64,000 nucleotides of DNA from Candidatus Latescibacterota bacterium (GCA_965237525.1 CBDEFO010000007.1:672001-736000), one strand, 5' to 3'; positions 38,393 to 50,621 are shown, counted from the stretch's first letter. Notes: a model not told the origin generated them from the letters alone. A program made the numbers and translations.

Positions 38393-38524
38393 CGCTATTT
38401 TCATTTTGCGCAAATTTTGAAGCCGATCGCTTTTGTCTTCTCGTAACTACTTCCAGCTATCTGTAACGCGGATAACGGTATAGCTCTTGTGAGTTCAAAC
38501 CAACGAAGAGGGAGGAGTGCAACA

Positions 38525-39349
38525 ATGAATCGTATCATCGTAATGGCCCTTATATGCATGTGCTGTACGGGAAGCAAGATAGATGCTTGGATTATTGACT
38601 TGAAACAGTCTCTTAATCTTGCGAAAGGCGGCACAATCTCCGCAGAGACTGTAGCAAACTGGGTAAACGAAACTACAAGTGCAGATACGCTGCTGTGCAA
38701 CTCCCTAGTGGTCAGCGGAGATATTGATTTCAGGAGTAGTGGGATCGATACCGTGTGGTGTATGCTTTACTTTAAGGAAGCGACATTTCGAGGAAAGTCC
38801 TACTTCACAAGGACGATGTTTCAAGGAGGAGCCGACTTTACAGGAGCGACGTTTCAGGAAAAGGCCGACTTTGTAGAAGCGATCTTTCAAGGAGAAGCCG
38901 GCTTCGCAAAAGCGACGTTTCAACGTGATGCTGATCTCAGGGAAGCGATGTTTCAACGAGATGCCTACTTCACAGAAGCAACGTTTCAGCGAGAAACTAT
39001 CTTCTGGGGTGTAACGTTTCAAGGGGAAGCTCACTTCACAGAAGCGACGTTTCAAGAAGCAGCCGATTTCACAGAAGCGACGTTTCAAGAAGCAGCTGAT
39101 TTCACAGAAGCGACGTTTCAAAGAGGGACGGATTTCACAAAAGCAACGTTTCAACGAGAGACCGAATTTGCAGAAGCGATGTTTCAACGAGATGCCCACT
39201 TCGCAGAAGCGATGTTTCAACGAGAGACAAACTTTAGGGGTGTAATGTTTCAAGGAGAGGCTGACTTCAGGGGTGTGACGTTTCAAGGGAAGGCCGACTT
39301 CAGGGGTGTGACGTCTCACGGAAAGGCCGACTTCAGAGATGCATTTTAG
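38525..39349 (+). CDS. Secreted pentapeptide-repeat protein, probably 3'-degraded
   Basis: GGAGG RBS, hydrophobic leader and 17 repeats of 11 aa. A degenerate continuation follows in another frame after TAG 39347-39349. Confidence 0.75.
   Translation: MNRIIVMALICMCCTGSKIDAWIIDLKQSLNLAKGGTISAETVANWVNETTSADTLLCNSLVVSGDIDFRSSGIDTVWCMLYFKEATFRGKSYFTRTMFQGGADFTGATFQEKADFVEAIFQGEAGFAKATFQRDADLREAMFQRDAYFTEATFQRETIFWGVTFQGEAHFTEATFQEAADFTEATFQEAADFTEATFQRGTDFTKATFQRETEFAEAMFQRDAHFAEAMFQRETNFRGVMFQGEADFRGVTFQGKADFRGVTSHGKADFRDAF
38780..39340 (+). repeat. Coding tandem repeat, 17 x 33 bp
   Basis: Units such as GCGACGTTTCAAGAAGCAGCCGATTTCACAGAA (ATFQEAADFTE), contiguous and without spacers. Confidence 0.92.
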
Positions 39350-39900: not shown

Positions 39901-40272
39901 TTAAAGATCCTCCAAATATCTCCTAATTGCCCTATTTACCAGTTCTGCCGTGGCCTTGCCTTCCTCTTTCGCCTTATTACTCAATGGTTCGTACAGTGCG
40001 TCTTCGATCCAGTGGGTTCTCCGTGACTTTGGACTTTTTGACTTCTGAAATTTGTGCGTGCTCTCAGCTTCTTCCTCGGCAAGCGACGACGGTTCCTGCG
40101 AGTTTTCGGAGATTATGCTCTGGTTTGTCTTTGAATGATCCCATTCATCGACACGGCCCACGGATGAGATTTCTGCTACGTTTCTTCTCCGTAGAATTAA
40201 GAGCGCGACCAGTCCAAGAGCTAGAGACAGTGCGCTGGTCAAAAAGAGTCCCAAAATGATCCATTTATACAT
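39901..40272 (-). CDS. Membrane-anchored protein with a C-terminal ribbon-helix-helix (CopG-like) domain
   Basis: N-terminal TM helix. C-terminus RRTHWIEDALYEPLSNKAKEEGKATAELVNRAIRRYL. Confidence 0.6.
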   Translation of the reverse strand: MYKWIILGLFLTSALSLALGLVALLILRRRNVAEISSVGRVDEWDHSKTNQSIISENSQEPSSLAEEEAESTHKFQKSKSPKSRRTHWIEDALYEPLSNKAKEEGKATAELVNRAIRRYLEDL

Positions 40273-40750
40273 CGGTTACTTTCTTTCTCTATGCCTGGAT
40301 ATGTATCGTCTGCCTCTAATCGAAGTTGGGCCCCTTCACACACTGCAGTGCAACCGCTTCCTGCTCTTTCCCTCCTGGTGTCTTTATATTATACCAGGAG
40401 CGCAGAGGAGAAAAGAGAGCTGCACAAGCCTAATGATCACCCAATCGAATGAGGGAAGTACTGACTCGGCTGAATATACTGAAAAAAAGGAGAAAAGTCA
40501 ATAACAATCGATCTGGATCCAGGTTCATTGAGTTTTTTCGGAGGTAAGCTAGCACTGACTGCACGCCAGGCGGGCCCCTCTGTTCGCTCCAAGCGTAGGG
40601 CAATACAGGCACTACATGTAAGAAAGAAGAAAGAGGTGCCCAAATCCAGCACACGACACAGTGCAGAAGTCTTACTTAAATCTTAATACTGCACTTGCCT
40701 TCTACCAAAGCTAAAGCTTCTAAGAACATTAAATGGCCCTGCTAATCTAA

Positions 40751-40899
40751 GCCGAATAATTCGTGAAATCTGAGAAATCTGCACAAATACTGGACTTTCC
40801 AGTTATCGCACGAAAACAAAGTTTCTTAGCCTAAATTGTATAATCGATTGTCGTACATAGAATTATAGAACTTTTCAGCAAGTTTATGAATTAATCAGG
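40751..40899 (-). mobile_element. MITE, short subfamily, copy B (149 bp)
   Basis: GCCGAATAATTCGTGAAA ... CAAGTTTATGAATTAATCAGG, flanked by CTAA direct repeats (40747-40750, 40900-40903). Confidence 0.8.
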
Positions 40900-40913
40900 C
40901 TAATTGGTTTCTC

Positions 40914-40942
40914 TTGACATCTAACAAGTTCGTCTGTATCAT
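40914..40942 (+). promoter_or_regulatory. sigma70-type promoter with no ORF immediately downstream
   Basis: TTGACA-N17-TATCAT. Confidence 0.55.
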
Positions 40943-41607
40943 TGTAGGTTAATCGGTCTATATACTAAACTTCCGTATTTTTTCCAGTAAGTGAGAACCG
41001 ACTATACTCAGGGGAGAATCCCTGCGCGTGACTTCCTTTACTGAAGCTATAGGATTCTGGACACATCTCGAGTGAGATAGCGCGCATTCTTTCCGCTAAG
41101 GATCTTGAGAAGGCCGTAATCGGAGAGCGAAGCGTGGCAGCCAAAGACGATAATGTATATTGGGGCCCCTTCTCAACTAAGAGCAGAGCACTCATAAATC
41201 ACGGAGATGTTAAAGGCAGGAGCCTGTGAGAATACAATATGATGTAATACCTACAGAGCACGCAAATATGATGTTATAAAAGGAAGTATGACGTAGGCAA
41301 TAATGTAACTTAATATACAATAGATTAGATTACTTAGCAAGATATTTCGTTTTATGGAAAGAAATATTAAGGTATTACCTAATTCGTAATACTTACCAAC
41401 AGGAGGGTTCTATCTAATATTGTCACTCAGAGCAGAGAAGAATTGACATCAGCGATGTCGCTGGATTGGATGACCGTGCTGCTGGAAGCGAAGACGATTT
41501 TAGACCTTTGATTGACTTTCTATAAAACAAACCTCTGAACCGATTTTGTGCACGAGGGTCCTAAGAAATATTCTCCAGAATCCTAACGAGACGTTAAGGA
41601 GCAACGG

Positions 41608-42585
41608 ATGATCCTAGCTGGGGATGTAGGCGGTACGAAGGCACGGTTGGCGCTTTACCAACTGGAAGATGGGAAGCTTATGCGCCAGCAGATGGAAACG
41701 TTTGTAAGCCGTGACTTTGCCAGTTTAGAAGACATAATACGTACTTTTCTCTGCAAGAATTCGTGTTCCCCTGCGAAAGCCTGTTTTGGCGTTCCGGGTC
41801 CGGTTATGAAAGGGCATGCACAGGTAACGAACTTGCCCTGGCTTTTGGATGAAGCACGTATTGCCGCTGGTCTTTCTATTTCATCCTTTAAGTTACTCAA
41901 TGATCTTGTGGCAACTGCTATGGCGATACCCCTCCTTGCTCAGGATGATCTGGTCACTTTGCACAAAGGTGAGCCAGTAGATGAGGGAGCAACCTGTGCT
42001 GTGCTTGCTCCTGGTACCGGTCTTGGCATGGCCTTTTTGCATAACGACTCTGGCCGGTGCCGCGCCTTAGCATCTGAAGGAGGGCATGTGGACTTTGCTC
42101 CCACAACAGAGGTAGAAATCAAACTCCTCAAATATCTGAAAGCAAAATTTGGTCGCGTCAGCTATGAACGTGTGCTTTCCGGACCCGGGTTGGTTAATAT
42201 CTACAACTTTCTTAAGGAAAGCGGTTTTGCTCCTGAACCTCCGGAACTGGAAAAACGGCTTCAAAGGGAGGATCCTGCCGCTGTAATCTCTACTGCGGGC
42301 GAAGGCGGTCAGTATGAGCTTTGTGTGAAGGCACTGGATATTTTTGCTTCTATCCTGGGGTCCCAGGCCGGCAATATAGTACTGGCTACCCTGGCTACCG
42401 GCGGCATTTATCTCGGCGGTGGAATCCCGCCAAAAATATGTGAGAAGTTGCAGGATGGCACGACAGTGTCAGCTTACCTGAAGAAAGGACGGCTGTCAGA
42501 GTTAGTCAAAGCTACACCTTTGTATGTGATTCTCAATGACCATGCGGCACTTCTCGGGGCGGCATACTTCGCTTCGACGCTTTGA
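41608..42585 (+). CDS. glk: Glucokinase
   Basis: Motifs MILAGDVGGTKAR, NLPW, LLND, APGTGLG, SEGGH and ERVLSGPGL. Confidence 0.95.
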   Translation: MILAGDVGGTKARLALYQLEDGKLMRQQMETFVSRDFASLEDIIRTFLCKNSCSPAKACFGVPGPVMKGHAQVTNLPWLLDEARIAAGLSISSFKLLNDLVATAMAIPLLAQDDLVTLHKGEPVDEGATCAVLAPGTGLGMAFLHNDSGRCRALASEGGHVDFAPTTEVEIKLLKYLKAKFGRVSYERVLSGPGLVNIYNFLKESGFAPEPPELEKRLQREDPAAVISTAGEGGQYELCVKALDIFASILGSQAGNIVLATLATGGIYLGGGIPPKICEKLQDGTTVSAYLKKGRLSELVKATPLYVILNDHAALLGAAYFASTL

Positions 42586-42600
42586 CAGAGAAGGAGTTAG

Positions 42601-42849
42601 CCCGATTAATTCATAAACTTGGTGGAGTCATGGCGAGGAGCAAAGCGGTCCCCGATTGAGTCTATCGGGGAAGCAATCTCTAGGTTTTATAGTGGTGTCC
42701 CATGAGAGTCGGAGAGTATTACATCTATCACAGAATCGAGATTTCTTCGCCTTCGGCTCGCAATGACACCGAAGGTGGTTAAACGGCATAACTATAATAT
42801 AATACAATCCCTTAATTAATGCACGGCCTTTTTGTGTGAATTATTCGCG
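42601..42849 (+). mobile_element. MITE, long subfamily, copy 2
   Basis: Near-identical to 4290-4538. TTAG at 42597-42600 and again at 42851-42854, so the right end is ambiguous by 1 bp. Confidence 0.9.
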
Positions 42850-42861
42850 TTTAGGTAGAAA

Positions 42862-43536
42862 ATGCGTAAAATAACAAAATCCTCTTTGTGTCCGCTTCTG
42901 CGCCTGGTGTTTCTTGGCATGTGGCTTTTTAGTTGTCCATTGTGGGCACAGGAAAAAGCGATCAAGTCGCAATATCCCTTGATGTCGCCGAAACTCGGTG
43001 AACGCTGCATCGTCTGTGGAGTCCTGTTGACAGAAAACGACACAGTATTGATCGTTCGCGGCCGTCGGGTGCCATTAAAAAGAGCGATGGTCGATTCGTT
43101 CTTGAGTAATCAGGAAAAGTACTTTTCCCAAAAGCAGCCGAAAAGCGCCTTATTTCAGGAGGAACTTGATGTCCCGGTCGGTGTTGCACAAGGCGGAATC
43201 AGTTTGAGCTGGTTCCTCATCGGCCTCTACACGTTAGTCGGGCTCATTTTCGGCGGAATGAGCGGGTACACTGCGGTGTCAAAGGGTTTTTCACCGATCC
43301 CTCATTTTTTCATCGGTCTACTGTTCAACGTGTTCGGCTATCTGTACGTGTTGACGCGGAAAGCCACCGCCCAGAAAGGCGAGATACCAGCCGGGCTGGT
43401 CAAAGTACCGATAACGCATGCGCCAGTTCCCTGCTGGGAGTGCGGCAGGACCAATCACCCGTCAGCCAGACACTGCGCAGACTGCGGAGCCGAATTAGAG
43501 CCGAAAATAGAGTCAGAAGTAGATCGGACGTCCTAA
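42862..43536 (+). CDS. Membrane protein with an exported CxxC (YHS/TRASH-like) domain and a C-terminal zinc ribbon
   Basis: Signal peptide, CIVC...FLSNQEKYF, two TM helices, then CWEC...CADC. Confidence 0.7.
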   Translation: MRKITKSSLCPLLRLVFLGMWLFSCPLWAQEKAIKSQYPLMSPKLGERCIVCGVLLTENDTVLIVRGRRVPLKRAMVDSFLSNQEKYFSQKQPKSALFQEELDVPVGVAQGGISLSWFLIGLYTLVGLIFGGMSGYTAVSKGFSPIPHFFIGLLFNVFGYLYVLTRKATAQKGEIPAGLVKVPITHAPVPCWECGRTNHPSARHCADCGAELEPKIESEVDRTS

Positions 43537-43698
43537 ATAAACCAGTATCATTGCGAGGCGGCGTGGGCACTGTGTGCGTTGCTGCCACCGTTTTTTGCAG
43601 GGGGCACGAAGTGAGAAGAAGCCACGAAGTGGGTGGGTGAAGCAATCCCCGATTGAATCTATCGGGGACAATCTCAAATAAACTGAGGTTATACATTA

Positions 43699-46050
43699 AT
43701 GCCGAAAAAACGAGAGCAACTGTCTTTAGGAGATAAAATCAAAGATCAGATTGTCAAGATTCTTCACTCCGGAAGCAGCCAGAACGAGCGTCCCTATCTG
43801 AAGAAGCACAATGAGAGCAACGTTCCCGGATTGTATATAATCGGAGACCTTGCCGGCGCGCCGGTTATTAAATATGCCATGAAGCAAGGGTACGATATCA
43901 TAGAGGACATCGCTTCGTTGGCCGGCGCTATCGGTGGAGATGACCCTGATCTTTTCGACGCAGTTATCATTGGCGCTGGTGCGGCCGGTTTGAATGCGGC
44001 GCTGCAAGCCAGAGAGCGCGGCATGCGTTACCTCCTCCTTGAGAAAGAGAAGCTCGCCAACACCATTGAAAATTTCCCCGAAGGCAAATGGGTGTACGCG
44101 GAACCCGATAGCCAGCCGCCCCAAGGTAAGCTCTGGCTCGATGGCGCCAGTAAGGAGGATTTGATCAAGCGTTGGCAACAGATCGTCAATGACAATCAAC
44201 TCAACGTGCGAACAGCAGAAGGGGTGACCAGTTGTGAGAAAAAAGACGGCATCTTTCATGTCCAAACGTCCAAAGGGGTATATCGCTCCAAACGGGTCGT
44301 ATTGGCAACCGGACAGCGGGGGAACCCGCGCAAACTCAATGCGACCGGTGAGGATCGGGAGCAAGTTTACCACCGTCTCTACTCACCGCGCAAGTACAAA
44401 AATGAGAACATCCTTGTAGTTGGAGGCGGAAACAGCGCTGTCGAAGCGGCGATCACACTTAGCGAAAGAAACAAGGTCTATCTTTCCTACCGCGGCGGTG
44501 AATTTGCAAGGATCTTCAAGGACAACAGAGAAAAGCTCGATGAAAAGATCGCCACCAAAAAGATAGAGCCACTTTTAAACTCCAATGTGGTTGAATTCGG
44601 AGAAGATCAAGCCACGTTGAAGATGGATCGCGTCGGGTCCAAAGATACTCAAAAGGTCCCCTGCGACCACGCTTTTGTCTTAATTGGCGCCGAGGTGCCG
44701 CGTGATTTTCTCAAATCGATCGGCATCAAAATGGAAAACGAGTGGGAGGGGAGCATCCTGCGCTCCCTCGCTCTGGTACTCTTGGGCTTCATCGGGCTGT
44801 GGATTTTCGGAGTGCGGTTCGGTGGACATGCATCGCTTGCTGGGGTTGACCTGTCGTTTATTCCCGGGTGGATCGGCTTTCTGATCTGGGCGCTAGGACT
44901 TTATGGATTGATCCACTTTGGGAAAAAAGGTGACCGCTTCGCCTGGTTAGGGTTATCGTTCTTCGTCTGCTACACGGTCTACGGCGCCAAACTCGGTGCG
45001 GGTGAGGAGTTCTGGCCATACAGAGATTGGGGCTATAGATTCCTTTCATTCTTTGATCGACCCTGGTCATTTTGGTACACAGTCCTCTACACGACCTTAA
45101 TGACCGTCTTCGGCTTGGAGGCGCTCAAACGCTGGGGCCTCGACCGCAAGGACAAATTCCAAATCTGGCGCTACGTCAGTCTGATCAGCTTCCAGTTGAT
45201 CTTCTTCTTTCTCATACCCGAGTTCCTCTTTCAATATGCGGTCAAATACCAGTGGGTCGGCGAAAATTTAGCTAACGATCCGGTCTTTGCAGAGCAGGCA
45301 TGGCGCAGCTATGGCATCGTCTACGCCTGGCCGCTCTTTTTCTATACTTTTTTTTATAATCCGCATCAGATATGGGTGCTATGGGGCGTGTTTTTGACTT
45401 TTGTGATAATTCCGATTTTTGTCCTCTTTCATGGCAAACGCTATTGTTCGTGGATCTGCGGTTGCGGCGGACTGGCGGAGACATTTGGCGACCGCTGGCG
45501 ACACCTTGCGCCCAAGGGTAAAACCTCAATCAAGTGGGAGCGGATGATTCTGGTGGTGTTGATCTTCGCCGCTGTCGTCACTGTTCTGGTTTTGGTCAAA
45601 GATATTTACGGAGTCATCGCCGGATCTGCGGATTTAGGGATACGTATCTACCGCCTCTGTGCAGACGTCTGGCTGGTCGGGATCTTGCCGGTGACGCTTT
45701 ATCCGTTTATGGGTGGCAAAGTGTGGTGCCGCTACTGGTGCCCGCTGGCGAAATTGATGCATTTGCAATCGAATCTTTTCACCAAGCTCAAATGGAGCAA
45801 ATATAAAATCGTCGCTAACGACAAGTGCATCAGCTGCTACGAGTGCTCGCGCAATTGTGAGGTGGGCATCGACGTAATGAGCTTTGCTTTGAAGCAAGAA
45901 GAGCTGAACACCTTGAACAGCTCCTGCATCGGCTGTGGGATCTGCGTCAGCGTCTGCCCGATGGATGTCTTAAGTTTTGGCAAAGAGCCTGAAAAAGCAA
46001 ATTCTGGACTAGTGAAGTTGTTGAATACCCAAGGCGAGGTTGTCACTTAA
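43699..46050 (+). CDS. NAD(P)/FAD oxidoreductase (TrxB/YpdA-like) fused to a NapH/MauN-like polytopic 4Fe-4S membrane domain
   Basis: IIGAGAAG, VLATG and VVGGGNSAVEAA, a TM region, CSWICGCG, CRYWCP, CISCYECSRNC and CIGCGICVSVCP. Confidence 0.85.
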   Translation: MPKKREQLSLGDKIKDQIVKILHSGSSQNERPYLKKHNESNVPGLYIIGDLAGAPVIKYAMKQGYDIIEDIASLAGAIGGDDPDLFDAVIIGAGAAGLNAALQARERGMRYLLLEKEKLANTIENFPEGKWVYAEPDSQPPQGKLWLDGASKEDLIKRWQQIVNDNQLNVRTAEGVTSCEKKDGIFHVQTSKGVYRSKRVVLATGQRGNPRKLNATGEDREQVYHRLYSPRKYKNENILVVGGGNSAVEAAITLSERNKVYLSYRGGEFARIFKDNREKLDEKIATKKIEPLLNSNVVEFGEDQATLKMDRVGSKDTQKVPCDHAFVLIGAEVPRDFLKSIGIKMENEWEGSILRSLALVLLGFIGLWIFGVRFGGHASLAGVDLSFIPGWIGFLIWALGLYGLIHFGKKGDRFAWLGLSFFVCYTVYGAKLGAGEEFWPYRDWGYRFLSFFDRPWSFWYTVLYTTLMTVFGLEALKRWGLDRKDKFQIWRYVSLISFQLIFFFLIPEFLFQYAVKYQWVGENLANDPVFAEQAWRSYGIVYAWPLFFYTFFYNPHQIWVLWGVFLTFVIIPIFVLFHGKRYCSWICGCGGLAETFGDRWRHLAPKGKTSIKWERMILVVLIFAAVVTVLVLVKDIYGVIAGSADLGIRIYRLCADVWLVGILPVTLYPFMGGKVWCRYWCPLAKLMHLQSNLFTKLKWSKYKIVANDKCISCYECSRNCEVGIDVMSFALKQEELNTLNSSCIGCGICVSVCPMDVLSFGKEPEKANSGLVKLLNTQGEVVT

Positions 46051-46354
46051 AATAGTAGACGGTGAGATTGGTTCTGGTTCTGCTTCGTGTCTCGTTCGGG
46101 GTCGAAACTCCTGACGGCGTCGGGGCTTGGCACCTCGCAATGACTAAGGGTAAAATCCAAGCAACGTCATTGCGAGTCCTCGATTGAGTCCCCGATTGAG
46201 TCTATTGCGGGGGGGGATCGGGGAAGCCCAGAGCGAAGCGAAGGGTCAGCGAAGTAATCTCACCTCGAAAGGAGACGCGAAGCGGAGTTCTGTGGTTGAA
46301 ACGGCTTTTGCAGGACTTCTTTCACCTAGCCACTGATATTAAAGGGAAACTACT

Positions 46355-47773
46355 ATGAACAAACAGGAATTCGGTTTGATAGGCCTGGGTGTTATGGGAC
46401 AAAACTTCGTGCTCAATGTTGAGCGAAACGGGTTTAGTGTGTCCGTTTACAACCGAACTCTTTCAAGGACGACCGCCTTTGTTGAGGACGAAGCAGTGGG
46501 GAAAAATATCCAGCCGAGCTACGCTCTGGAGGAATTTGTGGCGTCTTTGGAAAGACCGCGCCGCATCATGCTTCTGGTCAAAGCAGGAGCGCCTGTAGAT
46601 GCTACTATTGGTCAACTTGTGCCTCTATTAGACGAAAATGACCTGATTATAGACGGGGGCAACTCCTGTTTTCTGGATACGGGGCGGCGTGCAAAAGAGC
46701 TAGAGGCTTACGGGATCAACTTTTTGGGTATGGGAGTTTCAGGCGGAGAAGAAGGCGCCCTGTGGGGACCGAGCCTGATGCCCGGCGGCTCTCCTGAGGC
46801 TTACAGGAAAGTTGAACCGATTATGAAAGCTGTAGCCGCCCAGGCAGGGGAAGACAGGGAACCTTGTGTAACCTATATCGGACCGGGGGGTTCTGGGCAT
46901 TACGTAAAGATGATTCACAACGGCATCGAGTACGGCGATATGCAGCTTATAGCGGAGGCATATGATCTCCTCAAAGGCGCTTTAGATCTTTCAGCGCTGG
47001 AATTCCATCAGCTTTTCTCTGAATGGAATGAGTCAGGACTTTCCTCTTTTCTTATCGAAATCACTGCCAAAGTTTTCGAGAAGATAGATGGAGAGACTGG
47101 AAAGCCGTTAGTTGACGTTATCCTGGACAAGGCAGGTCAAAAGGGAACGGGAAGATGGACCAGCCAAAACGCCCTGGAGTTGGGAGCCGCAATACCCACA
47201 ATTACCGCCGCTGTGGACGGACGTATCCTATCGGCGCAAAAAGATGAACGCGTTGCGGCGGCTAAGATCTTAAAGGGTCCGTCGGGAAAATATAGCGGCT
47301 CCTCACAGGAGTTGATAGATTCGGTCAAAGATGCGCTCTATGCGGCTAAAATCTGCTCTTATGCCCAAGGGATGAGCCTGCTTAGAACAGCTTCAGGAGA
47401 ATACGAGTACAATCTGAACTTAGGCGCTATTGCGAAGATATGGCGCGCAGGCTGTATTATCAGAGCAAGGCTCCTTGATGACATCACGAACGCCTATCTT
47501 CGCAATGGGAATTTGCCCAACCTCCTCGTTGACGAAGAATTCCGAAAGGCGATCAACGCCCACCAGGGTGCCTTGCGTTTTTCGATTGGTAAAGCTGTAG
47601 CGTTAGGCGTCCCCGTTCCAGCTATGAGCGCTTCACTGGCTTATTATGATGCCTACCGCAGCGAACGACTGCCTGCTAACTTGATCCAAGCGCAGAGGGA
47701 TTTGTTCGGAGCCCACACCTTCCAGCGCATCGATAAGCCGGGCATTTATCATGCCGATTGGGATATGGAATAA
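46355..47773 (+). CDS. gndA: 6-phosphogluconate dehydrogenase, NADP-dependent, decarboxylating
   Basis: Motifs GLIGLGVMG, VYNRT, GVSGGEEGA, KMIHNGIEY and QAQRDLFGAHT. Confidence 0.97.
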   Translation: MNKQEFGLIGLGVMGQNFVLNVERNGFSVSVYNRTLSRTTAFVEDEAVGKNIQPSYALEEFVASLERPRRIMLLVKAGAPVDATIGQLVPLLDENDLIIDGGNSCFLDTGRRAKELEAYGINFLGMGVSGGEEGALWGPSLMPGGSPEAYRKVEPIMKAVAAQAGEDREPCVTYIGPGGSGHYVKMIHNGIEYGDMQLIAEAYDLLKGALDLSALEFHQLFSEWNESGLSSFLIEITAKVFEKIDGETGKPLVDVILDKAGQKGTGRWTSQNALELGAAIPTITAAVDGRILSAQKDERVAAAKILKGPSGKYSGSSQELIDSVKDALYAAKICSYAQGMSLLRTASGEYEYNLNLGAIAKIWRAGCIIRARLLDDITNAYLRNGNLPNLLVDEEFRKAINAHQGALRFSIGKAVALGVPVPAMSASLAYYDAYRSERLPANLIQAQRDLFGAHTFQRIDKPGIYHADWDME

Positions 47774-47828
47774 TCTCACAGCGGATAGGGTTCGCTAAGT
47801 AAGGACTCAAACTGACGAGGAGCATAAA

Positions 47829-49376
47829 ATGGATCGATCCACACCCACCGTTATCGTTATCTTCGGTGCGTCGGGGGATTTAACGAAACGAAAATTGATA
47901 CCGGCCCTTTTTCAATTAGCCCACGAGGGTCTGCTCCCAGAACATACTCAGATTGTAGGCTTTGCCCGGAGGCCGAAATCGCACGATCAGTTTCGGGCTG
48001 AAATGGAAGAGGCCGTGACGAATTTTTCCCGAGCTCGGTCCGCAAAAGGCTCAAAAGAGTGGTCTGACTTTGCCTTACGCCTTTACTACCACACAGCAAG
48101 CTTCGAAGATGCCCTTGGATTCGTCGGTCTAAAAGATTTACTTGGCCAGCTCGATAGAGATAAGGGGATTCCTCCCGACACTGGCAATCGCCTCTTCTAT
48201 CTTTCTACTTCTCCCGATGTCTTCCCTGATATCATGCCCATGCTGGAGGCAGCCGAACTCATCGCAGATCCATATGATGAGAGCCGCTGGACCCGCGTGA
48301 TTGTGGAAAAACCGTTCGGGCGAGATCTGGATTCGGCCCGTAGCTTGAACAGGGACATACTGTCGATATTAGACGAAGGCCAGGTTTACCGGATTGACCA
48401 CTATTTAGGCAAAGAGACGGTCCAAAATATTATGGCCTTCCGCTTCGGCAACAGCATCTTTGAGCCTCTGTGGAATCGCCGGTACGTCGATCATGTTCAA
48501 ATCACAGTGGCAGAGACCATGGGTGTAGAAGGGCGCGGCGGCTATTACGATCGTTCAGGGGCTCTGCGCGACGTGGTGCAAAATCACATGCTGCAGCTTT
48601 TGGCCCTGGTAGCCATGGAACCGCCTGCTTCCTTTGCGCCCGATGCTGTGCGAGGTGAAAAGGTGAAGGTTTTAAGCGCCCTGCGTCCCATTTTGCCAGA
48701 TGAGGTGGGTAAATATGCCATCCGCGGTCAATACACCACCGGATCTATTAATGGACGGGCGATCCCCGATTATCGCACGGAGTCGAATGTGGATCCTAAC
48801 TCTTCCACTGAAACCTACGTAGCCTTAAAGTTACATGTTGACAACTGGCGCTGGGCGGATGTCCCCTTTTACCTGCGCACTGGAAAAGCCCTGCCGGAGC
48901 GTGTCACTGAAATTACTATCCAGTTTAAACAGCCTCCGTTAGCCCTTTTTGGCCATGCCTACCACGACGGCCATAAAAAAGCTGATAAAATGCAGCCTAA
49001 CACCCTGCGTCTTCGGGTCCAGCCCGATGAGGGCATCAGCTTAAATTTCGGTCTGAAAATCCCCGGTCCACAAATGATTTTGCAACCCACCGATATGGAA
49101 TTTTACTATAACAAAGTCTTCGATGCCGAACCTCCTGAAGCCTATGAGCGTCTCATTCTGGACGCTATCTTGGGTGACAGCACCCTCTTTATCCGCCACG
49201 ATGAGGTAGAGGCCGCCTGGAAGCTAATTGACGGTGTCCTGGAAGGTTGGGCACAAGATAGCCCGCCCCCGATTTACCCTTATCGGGCCGGTAGCTGGGG
49301 TCCACACACGGCAGATGAGTTTATAGAAAAAGATGGCAGAAGGTGGGTAGCATTAACGATAGGCTGTGATACTTAA
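47829..49376 (+). CDS. zwf: Glucose-6-phosphate 1-dehydrogenase
   Basis: Motifs IFGASGDL, EKPFG and RIDHYLGKETVQN. Confidence 0.98.
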   Translation: MDRSTPTVIVIFGASGDLTKRKLIPALFQLAHEGLLPEHTQIVGFARRPKSHDQFRAEMEEAVTNFSRARSAKGSKEWSDFALRLYYHTASFEDALGFVGLKDLLGQLDRDKGIPPDTGNRLFYLSTSPDVFPDIMPMLEAAELIADPYDESRWTRVIVEKPFGRDLDSARSLNRDILSILDEGQVYRIDHYLGKETVQNIMAFRFGNSIFEPLWNRRYVDHVQITVAETMGVEGRGGYYDRSGALRDVVQNHMLQLLALVAMEPPASFAPDAVRGEKVKVLSALRPILPDEVGKYAIRGQYTTGSINGRAIPDYRTESNVDPNSSTETYVALKLHVDNWRWADVPFYLRTGKALPERVTEITIQFKQPPLALFGHAYHDGHKKADKMQPNTLRLRVQPDEGISLNFGLKIPGPQMILQPTDMEFYYNKVFDAEPPEAYERLILDAILGDSTLFIRHDEVEAAWKLIDGVLEGWAQDSPPPIYPYRAGSWGPHTADEFIEKDGRRWVALTIGCDT

Positions 49377-49506
49377 AAACCTGCGTAACCTGTTGCCTGA
49401 GCACGCCATTGATCTGCAAATATAAACAAAAGGTTTGGCTGTTTAGCTTTCATCAGCTCCTTCTTTGTCCCTTCACATAGTAATCTATTCACCAGTTGCT
49501 GTTTCT

Positions 49507-50268
49507 TTAGTGAAGGGAGTGGTCAGGTGCACTTGCTCCTAAAGTAGTTGTGAGTAACTCACTTTTTTCTTCCGTTGGCAGATTTGAGGGAAAAATTTCT
49601 ACTTCATCAGTCCACCCATCAGTACCTTCACAATTAACAGACACTTCAACCTTAAAGGGTTCTAACTTCTTGCCTTCATCGAGAACCATTCTAATCCAAA
49701 TAGTTATAGGTTGTTGCTTATTCCTATTCCAATACAGCAAATTGCTATTGGAAAGTACACCTGTATCTCCAAACTCTAACCAATGAAGCTCCCTCTGGGA
49801 AGAAAACATATTAGAATTGAAGGTGAGTTCTGTGTAATGCCTTTGCCCTTCTTTCTTGTCTTTGGGATGTAGTTTCTTAAGGGGAAGTCTAAAAGTCAAA
49901 ACTGGCTTAACCCAATCGAAGTCTGAAGTATTAGTTATCTCAAATTCAACTTTACGGGAAGTAAAAGGATTAGGATGATCTTGGTAGACTCTTTTCAATG
50001 GTTCTGACAGCTCATCCTTAGGATGTTTATGAATTTCAGCCGAACTAATATGTGCTTTTACTTCCGCCTTCACCTTCTTCCTAGGAGGATCTGCTATAGC
50101 TAGGGCAACAATAACAGTAATCAATACTGCGAGCGTGCCTACAACTTGAACTACATTTCCAATATTAGAGGGTTTCTTCTTTGGTAAATCGTGAATCCAG
50201 AAACAAGATACCACACCCACAAAAACCAGAATCATTATGACGATCCAGTATCCCCACTTAATATTCAT
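49507..50268 (-). CDS. Hypothetical membrane protein, AT-rich
   Basis: 253-aa ORF with two N-terminal TM helices, an AGGAGG RBS, and a minus-strand promoter TTGTCT-N17-TATATT at 50334-50362. Confidence 0.7.
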   Translation of the reverse strand: MNIKWGYWIVIMILVFVGVVSCFWIHDLPKKKPSNIGNVVQVVGTLAVLITVIVALAIADPPRKKVKAEVKAHISSAEIHKHPKDELSEPLKRVYQDHPNPFTSRKVEFEITNTSDFDWVKPVLTFRLPLKKLHPKDKKEGQRHYTELTFNSNMFSSQRELHWLEFGDTGVLSNSNLLYWNRNKQQPITIWIRMVLDEGKKLEPFKVEVSVNCEGTDGWTDEVEIFPSNLPTEEKSELLTTTLGASAPDHSLH

Positions 50269-50621
50269 ATTTTTCTAACCTCCTAGCATTTGCTCCATAT
50301 TTGATCGTAGTAACTCATTTTGATTCTCCCTATAATATACAAAAGTTCAGAGCAGTAGACAAGGATTTATGCCAGTTACCCACAAGTTCCTATGATTCCA
50401 TTGTTAAATCATAGCTTCCACAGAGAGAAACATATAAAACTCCTCGGTAAAAGTCGAGGTCTAATAGCCTCTGAACGAAACAAACGCACGTGATTTTCAT
50501 CCGATTATTTCTTAAAACACATTGACAAACAAAGACAGCAAAGATTATATTTTTGAACGGAATTGTATCGGCATCGAAGCCGTTGCGTATCTTCCTATCT
50601 TGTTTCCACCACGAGGAGAGG

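Follow-up and report, generated by a model that had tools for sequence, protein, structure and literature searches.

NapH and MauN are defined by two CX3CP motifs, by four transmembrane (TM) helices and by their location among nap genes (NapG/NapAB). The cytoplasmic electron partners of the NapH-class polyferredoxins (NapH, MauN, YccM and CcoG) are poorly known, and the donor of CcoG is explicitly given as unknown in PMC7558416. NapH has been described as a putative quinone-binding subunit (PMC8238504), and CcoG as a Cu(II)-reducing member of the NapH family that has two Cu sites in addition to its two [4Fe-4S] clusters (PMC7558416). On the side of the flavoproteins, YpdA is reported to be NADPH-dependent and to require Cys14 of its GGGPC14G motif for the reduction of bacillithiol disulfide (BSSB) (PMC6591457), and it is described as a soluble tetramer (bioRxiv 10.1101/2020.12.02.408641). 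In this study, we analyzed a stretch of 64,000 nucleotides from Candidatus Latescibacterota bacterium (GCA_965237525.1 CBDEFO010000007.1:672001-736000; hereafter the window), which contains a gene for a fusion of a YpdA-like flavoprotein with a NapH-like membrane domain and, directly upstream, a gene for a zinc-ribbon partner (hereafter ZR). Judged from its sequence, each half of the fusion lies in a known superfamily and yet lacks defining features of the named families within it. We regard the fusion as an electron-transfer module of the NapH class whose input, an NAD(P)H flavoprotein, is built into the same membrane protein (Table 1).

The flavoprotein half of the fusion is, by its sequence relationships, a true circular permutation of a YpdA/thioredoxin reductase (TrxR)-type enzyme, as the original prediction had claimed. 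The closest relatives of residues 87-348 in both sequence and fold are the YpdA/Bdr enzymes (TIGR04018; 7a7b, 7apr and 7a76), and these residues align to residues 5-267 of the 328 residues of Bdr/YpdA 7a7b (E 1e-30). Unlike YpdA/Bdr, the fusion carries the FAD-binding GD segment before the GxGxxG fold, at residues 28-80. Profiles of Pfam and NCBIfam that match the fusion (YpdA, Pyr_redox_2 and Pyr_redox_3) end on it at about 282/305 and 265/316, and these ends short of the C-terminus indicate that the GD piece is missing from its usual C-terminal place. Two proteins of canonical order, P0216 (303 residues) and P0264 (310 residues), match the fusion in two separate parts. Their first 257-262 residues match fusion residues 85-347 with 45% identity (E 4e-74) for P0216 and 39% identity (E 2e-63) for P0264, and their C-terminal segments, residues 256-301 of P0216 and 243-306 of P0264, match residues 28-71 (E 1e-8) and 11-72 (E 2e-9) of the fusion, respectively. 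Both canonical proteins cover their Pfam profiles from end to end (1-305/305 and 1-291/291), and in the permuted proteins the matches to these Pfam profiles end near 281 and 251.

The model of the whole fusion obtained with AlphaFold2 (AF2) points in the same direction. The N-terminal piece at residues 31-80, with a strand at 45-47 and a helix at 57-72, is among its best-defined parts (pLDDT 91-96), and in an alignment of 32 family members, G49 and P55 of the GD segment are invariant (32/32). Comparison of the model with known structures by Foldseek agreed with the proposed kinship to TrxB, YpdA and ferredoxin-NADP+ reductases (FNRs): Bdr/YpdA 7a7b ranked first (E 7e-20, TM-score 0.70 on the target, rmsd 3.3 over 270 columns), and the next ranks were taken by TrxRs and TrxR-type FNRs.

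The permutation is, however, not confined to this fusion, and many other proteins have the same order. We surveyed the best 150 representatives from a library of 1.8 billion proteins. One contiguous match from query position 40 or earlier to position 340 or later, that is, the GD piece and then the core, was found in 74 of them, and 5 start in the canonical way. Many of the proteins with the GD piece before the core are soluble. Fourteen permuted proteins with other domain architectures were scanned, and eight of them (P0207, P0210, P0214, P0223, P0248, P0251, P0255 and P0261) have a 2x[4Fe-4S] domain directly preceding the permuted module. At E <=1e-3, 1314 relatives were found among 7994 candidates scored. 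Relatives of the permuted module are also fused elsewhere, in P0207 with FHA domains and in P0228 with a class III cytochrome c domain, and a relative of 1130 residues (L082:5621-9013, - strand) has an N-terminal Ser/Thr kinase domain before its flavoprotein-NapH part.

The flavoprotein lacks a redox-active Cys, as had been noticed originally: none stands at the YpdA or the TrxR active-site positions in any of the 32 aligned family members. The alignment with 7a7b places GAGAAG of the fusion where YpdA has GGGPC14G, and the catalytic Cys14 of YpdA is thereby replaced by Ala. In the alignment with 4zn0, the residues opposite C-A-I-C, the CxxC of TrxR, are H-R-L-Y; they are still free of Cys but differ from the L-Y-S-P named in the original prediction. 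Scores against the corresponding family models fall below the cut-offs, with 165.1 bits for the whole fusion and 168.8 bits for residues 1-364 against TIGR04018 (YpdA/Bdr; cut-off 339.9), and 76.9 bits against TIGR01292 (thioredoxin reductase; cut-off 343).

In terms of the nucleotide, the NADPH domain of the fusion shares with YpdA/Bdr the GGxNSA stretch and the 'YRGG' stretch, the latter as part of 'SYRGG'. Considering that YpdA is NADPH-dependent and that NADPH-producing genes are frequent neighbors of the fusion gene, we infer that the electrons come from NADPH. From its sequence, the most likely mode of action of the flavoprotein half is that of the TrxR-type ferredoxin/flavodoxin-NADP+ reductases (Bacillus FNR1/FNR2, 6gar and 6gas; Chlorobaculum, 3ab1). 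These are two-domain flavoproteins with no redox disulfide, in which electrons move between NADP(H) and a protein with an Fe-S cluster or a flavin. Of these, 6gar was matched both by sequence (E 1e-13) and by Foldseek (E 5e-15), and 3ab1, 6gas and 2zbw were matched as well. Unlike the TrxR-type FNRs, the fusion has its putative Fe-S acceptor attached and membrane-bound, and its order is permuted. The C-terminal extension of the TrxR-type FNRs is FAD-stacking, and the fusion is without such an extension because its C-terminus leads into the membrane.

The membrane half resembles NapH/MauN in its polytopic core, in the Cys motifs that follow TM helices and in the C-terminal, cytoplasmic 2x[4Fe-4S] domain, and the NapH-like domain with two Cys motifs of the original prediction was confirmed. 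The match to TIGR02163 (NapH/MauN; residues 567-760, E 4e-18) is real but, with 65.9 bits, stays below the cut-off of 213, and PRK09477 (NapH) was matched at E 7e-15, far below its cut-off. Unlike NapH, the fusion has eight predicted TM helices (353-372, 390-409, 413-431, 456-481, 486-516, 557-578, 615-637 and 642-671) and not four, has its own NAD(P)H flavoprotein, and has no NapG or nap genes near it. The helix pair 353-409 is an insertion: of the 32 aligned sequences, the 10 from close relatives have it and the 22 from distant relatives lack it. The second Cys motif is a true NapH CX3CP, and W676, C677, R678, C681 and P682 are invariant in 32/32. The first is CX3CGC without the Pro; C583 and C587 are invariant and C589 is kept in at least 90% of the 32 sequences, and PF12801 (Fer4_5) gave a weak match at 562-598. 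All eight Cys residues of the cluster motifs, C710-x2-C713-x2-C716-x3-C720 and C743-x2-C746-x2-C749-x3-C753-P, are invariant in 32/32. The chain ends 26 residues past the last cluster motif, and this tail is disordered in the AF2 model.

Lys and Arg residues amount to 7 in the loop 579-614 and 5 in the loop 672-699, both on the flavoprotein side, and to 0-3 in the four alternate loops. This distribution agrees with a topology in which both termini are cytoplasmic (N-in/C-in), which would place both Cys motifs and both cluster motifs on the cytoplasmic face. Many Trp, Tyr and Pro residues are conserved in the predicted outer loops, whereas the 32-sequence alignment has no conserved Cys, His or Met in them. 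The fusion gave no match to an FMN_bind domain, and no signal peptide was seen in it. When the membrane part alone was compared with the PDB by Foldseek, nothing was found at E <=1e-3 apart from ferredoxin pieces of about 70 residues, and the best Z of 5.2 from VIA-align against 48,161 chains corresponds to helical background. The membrane part is without a solved structural relative in either search, and a novel fold is not implied by this.

Table 1. Coordinates of the genes and protein features of the locus, counted from the first letter of the window.
Feature	Coordinates	Strand	Evidence
glk, glucokinase, 325 aa	41608..42585	+	PF02685 E 4e-102; TIGR00749 289.6 bits, cut-off 225
Partner gene ZR, 224 aa	42862..43536	+	ORF (open reading frame); only sub-threshold zinc-ribbon Pfam matches
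Predicted exported domain, ZR residues 30-110, C49-x2-C52	42949..43191	+	Alignments
Zinc ribbon, ZR residues 186-214, C191-x2-C194 ... C205-x2-C208	43417..43503	+	Four Cys invariant 27/27
Gene for the fusion (783 aa) of the permuted flavoprotein with the 8-TM NapH-like domain and 2x[4Fe-4S]	43699..46050	+	AF2 pLDDT 86.2, pTM 0.83
Displaced FAD-binding GD segment, residues 28-80 (ESNVPGLYIIGDLAG...KQG), normally C-terminal	43780..43938	+	Matches C-termini of relatives
Dinucleotide-binding core, residues 85-348: FAD GAGAAG, NAD(P)H GGGNSA ... SYRGG	43951..44742	+	7a7b; Pyr_redox_3 E 4e-44
Eight predicted TM helices, residues 353-671	44755..45711	+	DSSP of AF2 models
Cys motif 1, C583-x3-C587-G-C589, predicted cytoplasmic loop	45445..45465	+	32-sequence alignment
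Cys motif 2, C677-x3-C681-P682, NapH-type CX3CP, predicted cytoplasmic	45727..45744	+	32-sequence alignment
Two [4Fe-4S] motifs, residues 704-757	45808..45969	+	Fer4_21 E 6e-10; TIGR02163 match
gnd, NADP-dependent 6-phosphogluconate dehydrogenase, 472 aa	46355..47773	+	TIGR00873 673.5 bits; NF006765 684 bits
zwf, glucose-6-phosphate dehydrogenase, 515 aa	47829..49376	+	TIGR00871 639.9 bits

The partner gene was studied in 79 related loci with fusion proteins of 62-81% identity, in which all ORFs were clustered. Their records are labeled Latescibacterota, KSB1, Acidobacteriota/Terriglobia, Bacteroidota/Ignavibacteria, Calditrichia, Planctomycetota and others; labels of metagenome-assembled genomes may be in error, and genomes that are related do not count as independent cases. 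ZR is the only near-universal neighbor of the fusion gene in this set. In 62 of the 66 loci with enough upstream DNA, it immediately precedes the fusion gene in the same orientation, at a median gap of 39 nt; the exceptions are one locus where it lies 2 kb away and three without it. Additionally, we searched 121 genomes of the phylum of the window, where an orthologue was taken as >=65% identity and a relative as E <=1e-40. Relatives of the fusion occur in 91 of these genomes and an orthologue in 11. Strong matches to the ZR profile (E <=1e-55) were found in exactly the 11 orthologue genomes, each beside the fusion gene, and the other 110 gave only six weak matches to the TM segments. This confinement, together with the adjacency, indicates that ZR is a dedicated partner of the subfamily with the extra helix pair, and the predicted linkage to a zinc-ribbon gene is well supported.

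The architecture proposed originally for ZR, an exported CxxC domain followed by TM helices and a zinc ribbon, was recovered, but the CxxC is not a conserved pair. C49 is present in 50 of 52 sequences and in all 27 of a second set, where G67 is also invariant, whereas C52 is kept in only 42 of the 52 and replaced in 10. Hydropathy peaks lie at 9-27, 112-130 and 146-164, and by inspection and the first of these peaks the N-terminus is signal-peptide-like. All 27 members gave DZR/Zn_ribbon Pfam matches, every one under the cut-off. The side of the membrane on which the ribbon lies can be read in two ways: the two helices after the exported domain would put it outside, and the Lys/Arg-rich stretch after helix 2 would put it inside. 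No Pfam family matched the exported domain. A tentative resemblance to YHS/TRASH domains found no support in Pfam, with no such match in ZR of the window and none among the listed 25 families that are most frequent in the 27 members. Weak matches were obtained with the PF19335 heavy-metal-binding domain in 4 of the 27 (E 0.07 or worse) and with RseC/MucC (E 0.41), and a look-up in the ESM Atlas returned only 'hypothetical protein' clusters. Complex prediction of the whole fusion with mature ZR gave run scores of 0.52, 0.06 and 0.00, which we use neither for nor against an association.

As a tentative reading of these sequences, to which we give slightly less than an even chance, ZR and the fusion would form a membrane flavo-Fe-S enzyme that carries electrons from cytoplasmic NADPH through FAD and two [4Fe-4S] clusters to a membrane acceptor, most probably quinone. 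Cytoplasmic NADPH would reduce the FAD of the permuted module, and the FAD would pass the electrons to the fused pair of clusters, as in the TrxR-type ferredoxin reductases and possibly in the proteins with a ferredoxin domain before the permuted module. The clusters, possibly with the five-Cys site, would then reduce the acceptor at the cytoplasmic face of the membrane. Considering that NapH is described as a putative quinone-binding subunit and that the cofactor motifs all lie on one predicted side, quinone would be the most economical acceptor by analogy. Such an enzyme could drain surplus NADPH to the respiratory chain or keep the quinone pool reduced. In this scheme, ZR would be an accessory subunit, which may dock on the subfamily-specific extra pair of TM helices.

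Several points weigh against this proposal. The preference for NADPH over NADH is drawn from one short motif, and some distant family members have an acidic residue at that motif. Quinone is suggested as the acceptor by analogy with NapH only, at a match of 65.9 vs 213 bits, and Foldseek and VIA-align yielded no solved relative of the membrane fold with which its sites could be compared. The homologous CcoG is described as using its Cys motifs as Cu sites (PMC7558416). The exported Cys domain of ZR hints at a periplasmic task that would be superfluous for a plain quinone reductase, and the loci L011, L019 and L022 have no detectable ZR despite ample upstream DNA. No gene of the pentose-phosphate pathway (PPP) lies beside the pair in 58 of the 79 loci, many of which are on short contigs. 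Among the 11 orthologue genomes, zwf is present in 6 (one a fragment) and was not found in 5, at 94-100% completeness. Fusion relatives are present in 18/18 genomes of family f12 and 24/28 of family f7, with zwf in 0/18 and 3/28, respectively. The carrier genomes in which zwf was not found indicate that the fusion enzyme can do without the oxidative PPP.

L011, L019 and L022 each have a close orthologue of the fusion (65-72% identity), and in L011 about 600 nt without a sizeable + strand ORF precede the fusion gene.

Other explanations place the acceptor elsewhere. Electrons from NAD(P)H could pass through the NapH-like core to an extracytoplasmic thiol, protein or metal by way of the exported domain of ZR, a route that we consider unlikely. 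NapH-like proteins have been proposed as a modular apparatus that moves electrons to extracytosolic domains (PMC8238504). The fusion also has in common with the NosR/NirI/PceC-type flavinylated systems the membrane Fe-S core as an electron-transfer module (PMC8238504), and some of its relatives are annotated as 'NosR/NirI' in public databases. The signal-peptide-like start of ZR, the invariant Cys of its exported domain and its strict tie to the orthologous subfamily are consistent with such an export, and MsrA/B genes adjoin the pair in 2 loci (the cluster of L065). However, the NosR/NirI/PceC-type systems work for reductases in the periplasm and have an FMN-binding domain outside the cytosol, whereas the fusion has a cytoplasmic FAD/NAD(P)H domain and neither an extracytosolic FMN-binding domain nor another redox cofactor site on that side. 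The Cys motifs and clusters are predicted to be cytoplasmic, and the outer loops offer no conserved Cys, His or Met. The replacement of the second Cys of ZR in 10/52 argues against a dithiol/disulfide relay, and three loci do without ZR. Given the predicted topology and the variable second Cys, the extracytoplasmic thiol or metal acceptor named in the original prediction is so far without support.

A second alternative, which seems rather improbable to us, is that of a CcoG-type, NADPH-driven reductase of Cu(II), another metal or a metalloid at the cytoplasmic CX3C motifs, with the flavoprotein as built-in donor. The fusion resembles the cupric reductase CcoG/FixG (and YccM), which is likewise a membrane protein of the NapH family and combines Cys motifs with two [4Fe-4S] clusters, and both Cys motifs are invariant or almost invariant in the fusion family. 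The weak PF19335 matches of ZR would fit a task with metals. CcoG, with its Cu sites, provides a precedent, and the fusion shows one way in which such a core could be fed. On the other hand, no copper or other metal-handling genes recur as neighbors, where sugar and NADPH genes do, and among the 25 best NCBIfam matches listed, the NapH families are present and the CcoG families are not. The chain ends after the ferredoxin part, without the periplasmic C-terminal Ig-like domain of CcoG/FixG, and neither ccoGHIS nor copper genes lie near it, unlike CcoG/FixG as described in PMC7558416. The YccM-type homologues are also without the Ig domain, and its absence is compatible with CcoG-like activity.

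It is very unlikely, in our opinion, that the electrons flow in reverse, from quinol to NADP+ with or without the membrane potential, or that the protein is a sensor of the NADPH pool that signals through the zinc ribbon. NapH has been described as a quinol-oxidizing subunit (PMC8238504, citing Brondijk 2002), and the relatives with Ser/Thr kinase (L082) or FHA (P0207) domains would suit a sensor. Against this, the uphill transfer from quinol to NADP+ would have to be coupled to a source of energy, and no feature of this kind was seen. The neighboring genes are producers and not consumers of NADPH, and all cofactor motifs are very highly conserved, as would be expected of a catalytic enzyme. 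Finally, a membrane-anchored disulfide reductase like YpdA/Bdr or TrxR, to which the best sequence and structure matches and the public annotation 'thioredoxin reductase/polyferredoxin' would point, was rejected as next to impossible because the necessary active-site Cys residues (Cys14 of YpdA, as reported in PMC6591457, and the CxxC of TrxR) are missing from the fusion and all 32 relatives, and the scores are far below both family cut-offs.

With regard to the proposed NADPH-oxidizing enzyme, the gene neighborhoods provide a recurrent theme. After ZR, the most recurrent neighbors in the 79 loci are almost all glucose-6-phosphate or pentose-phosphate genes: pgi in 10 loci, zwf and glk in 7 each, rpiB in 5, pgl in 3, and tkt, rpiA and a ROK kinase gene in 2 each. 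A gene for an NAD(P)HX epimerase (YjeF_N) is a neighbor in 5 loci, and gnd in L010 and L067 as well as in the window. L010 is a near-identical locus with 99% protein identity, on a chromosome labeled Candidatus Latescibacterota. At least one PPP or glucose gene stands beside the pair in 21 of the 79 loci, L010 included, and in 13 of the 33 loci with >=7 kb on both sides. These genes are nearly all co-directional with the ZR-fusion pair and occur in at least seven gene orders, such as glk-ZR-fusion-gnd-zwf, ZR-fusion-yjeF-glk-tkt, rpiB-pgi-zwf-pgl...ZR-fusion, ZR-fusion-zwf-pgl, zwf-glk-ZR-fusion and ZR-fusion-rpiA. In the phylum sample, zwf is present in 54 of the 121 genomes. The link to PPP genes that had been predicted is thus recurrent but not obligate, given the orthologue genomes in which zwf was not found, and it is best read as a tendency and not a rule, within a shared pyridine-nucleotide theme.

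Paralogous loci were also inspected. Ten were chosen from the phylum sample, and the neighbors of nine were scanned, L089 having been dropped for overlapping ORF calls. A monomeric isocitrate dehydrogenase stands beside the NapH-like gene in 2 of the nine, and a glutamate synthase or glutamate dehydrogenase likewise in 2. In L084:5708-10061 and L087:5468-10654, it is a stand-alone NapH-like Fe-S gene that adjoins the monomeric isocitrate dehydrogenase, an NADPH-type neighbor, and in L087 a separate pyridine-nucleotide oxidoreductase gene precedes the NapH-like gene. YceI-like proteins are polyisoprenoid-binding, and in two genomes from the same genus the paralogous fusion gene is followed by a gene of this type (L083:9023-9733 and L088:8809-9450), which is a weak hint to quinone or isoprenoid chemistry. 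Two Acidobacteria-labeled loci (L014:11804-14445 and L023:1575-5674) have ergothioneine-type genes, namely a histidine-specific methyltransferase (Methyltransf_33) and a DinB_2 + FGE-sulfatase protein, and a gene for a dimeric pyridine-nucleotide disulfide oxidoreductase just downstream of the ZR-fusion pair.

The source genome is 96.6% complete and has the fusion gene in a single copy. It contains two zwf genes. The second (G000:C3:361348-362927, locus L080; PF02781, 366 bits) lies on another contig than the window, directly before the only PF01182 (pgl/NagB-type) gene of the genome, which agrees with the original statement that the window has no pgl. No match to the PntB transhydrogenase (PF02233) was found in this genome, which is a draft, so that its absence is not proof, and none to the phosphofructokinase PF00365 in the same draft, where PfkB-type kinases were not searched. 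KDPG aldolase gave a weak partial match (29 bits), and two NuoF-type genes are present. The lack of PntB and PF00365 matches suggests a cell that oxidizes glucose largely via zwf and gnd, without a membrane transhydrogenase.

In the window itself, the five ORFs for glk, ZR, the fusion, gnd and zwf fill positions 41608-49376; all of them were found where the original prediction had placed them, on the + strand. The matches of glk, gnd and zwf are well above the curated cut-offs of Pfam and NCBIfam. Rfam gave no family match over 40000-50500, and a scan of the region for promoters and terminators returned counts close to the shuffled expectation. Among sequencing runs recorded as RNA, none was listed as containing this stretch. 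The best promoter-like site (46127-46156, 10 of 12 positions) falls within the 304 nt that separate the fusion gene from gnd, and on this basis gnd-zwf may be transcribed apart from the ZR-fusion pair. Upstream of the locus, an ORF of 286 residues (38489-39349, + strand) consists of repeats of about ten residues (…ATFQ.EADF.E…), and a long antisense ORF that overlaps it (38705-39319, - strand) arises from the same repeat.

In terms of novelty, a full-text search of the literature found no paper on the fusion, its permutation, its dedicated partner or its NADPH-gene context; the list of NapH-like clusters in the supplement of PMC8238504 was outside this search and might include relatives. The annotations in public databases are unspecific and read 'NAD(P)-binding domain-containing protein', 'thioredoxin reductase/polyferredoxin' or 'NosR/NirI'. 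It is possible, though on balance doubtful, that these proteins represent a widespread and unrecognized class of respiratory NADPH dehydrogenase, made up of a membrane polyferredoxin of the NapH/CcoG class, a permuted flavoprotein built directly into it and a dedicated zinc-ribbon subunit. Such a class would pass the electrons of oxidative-PPP NADPH to the membrane and would reveal the kind of donor module used by NapH-class proteins.

A natural fusion with an NAD(P)H flavoprotein offers a direct and testable answer to the question of the cytoplasmic partner for one branch of the NapH class. The circular permutation provides a clean natural case in which a moved chain end has permitted a new fusion. 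To our knowledge, few bacterial routes are known for the respiratory oxidation of surplus NADPH, namely transhydrogenases and some NDH-2. If the proposed function is true, a dedicated membrane NADPH dehydrogenase would alter the metabolic models of several phyla that are abundant in soils and sediments.

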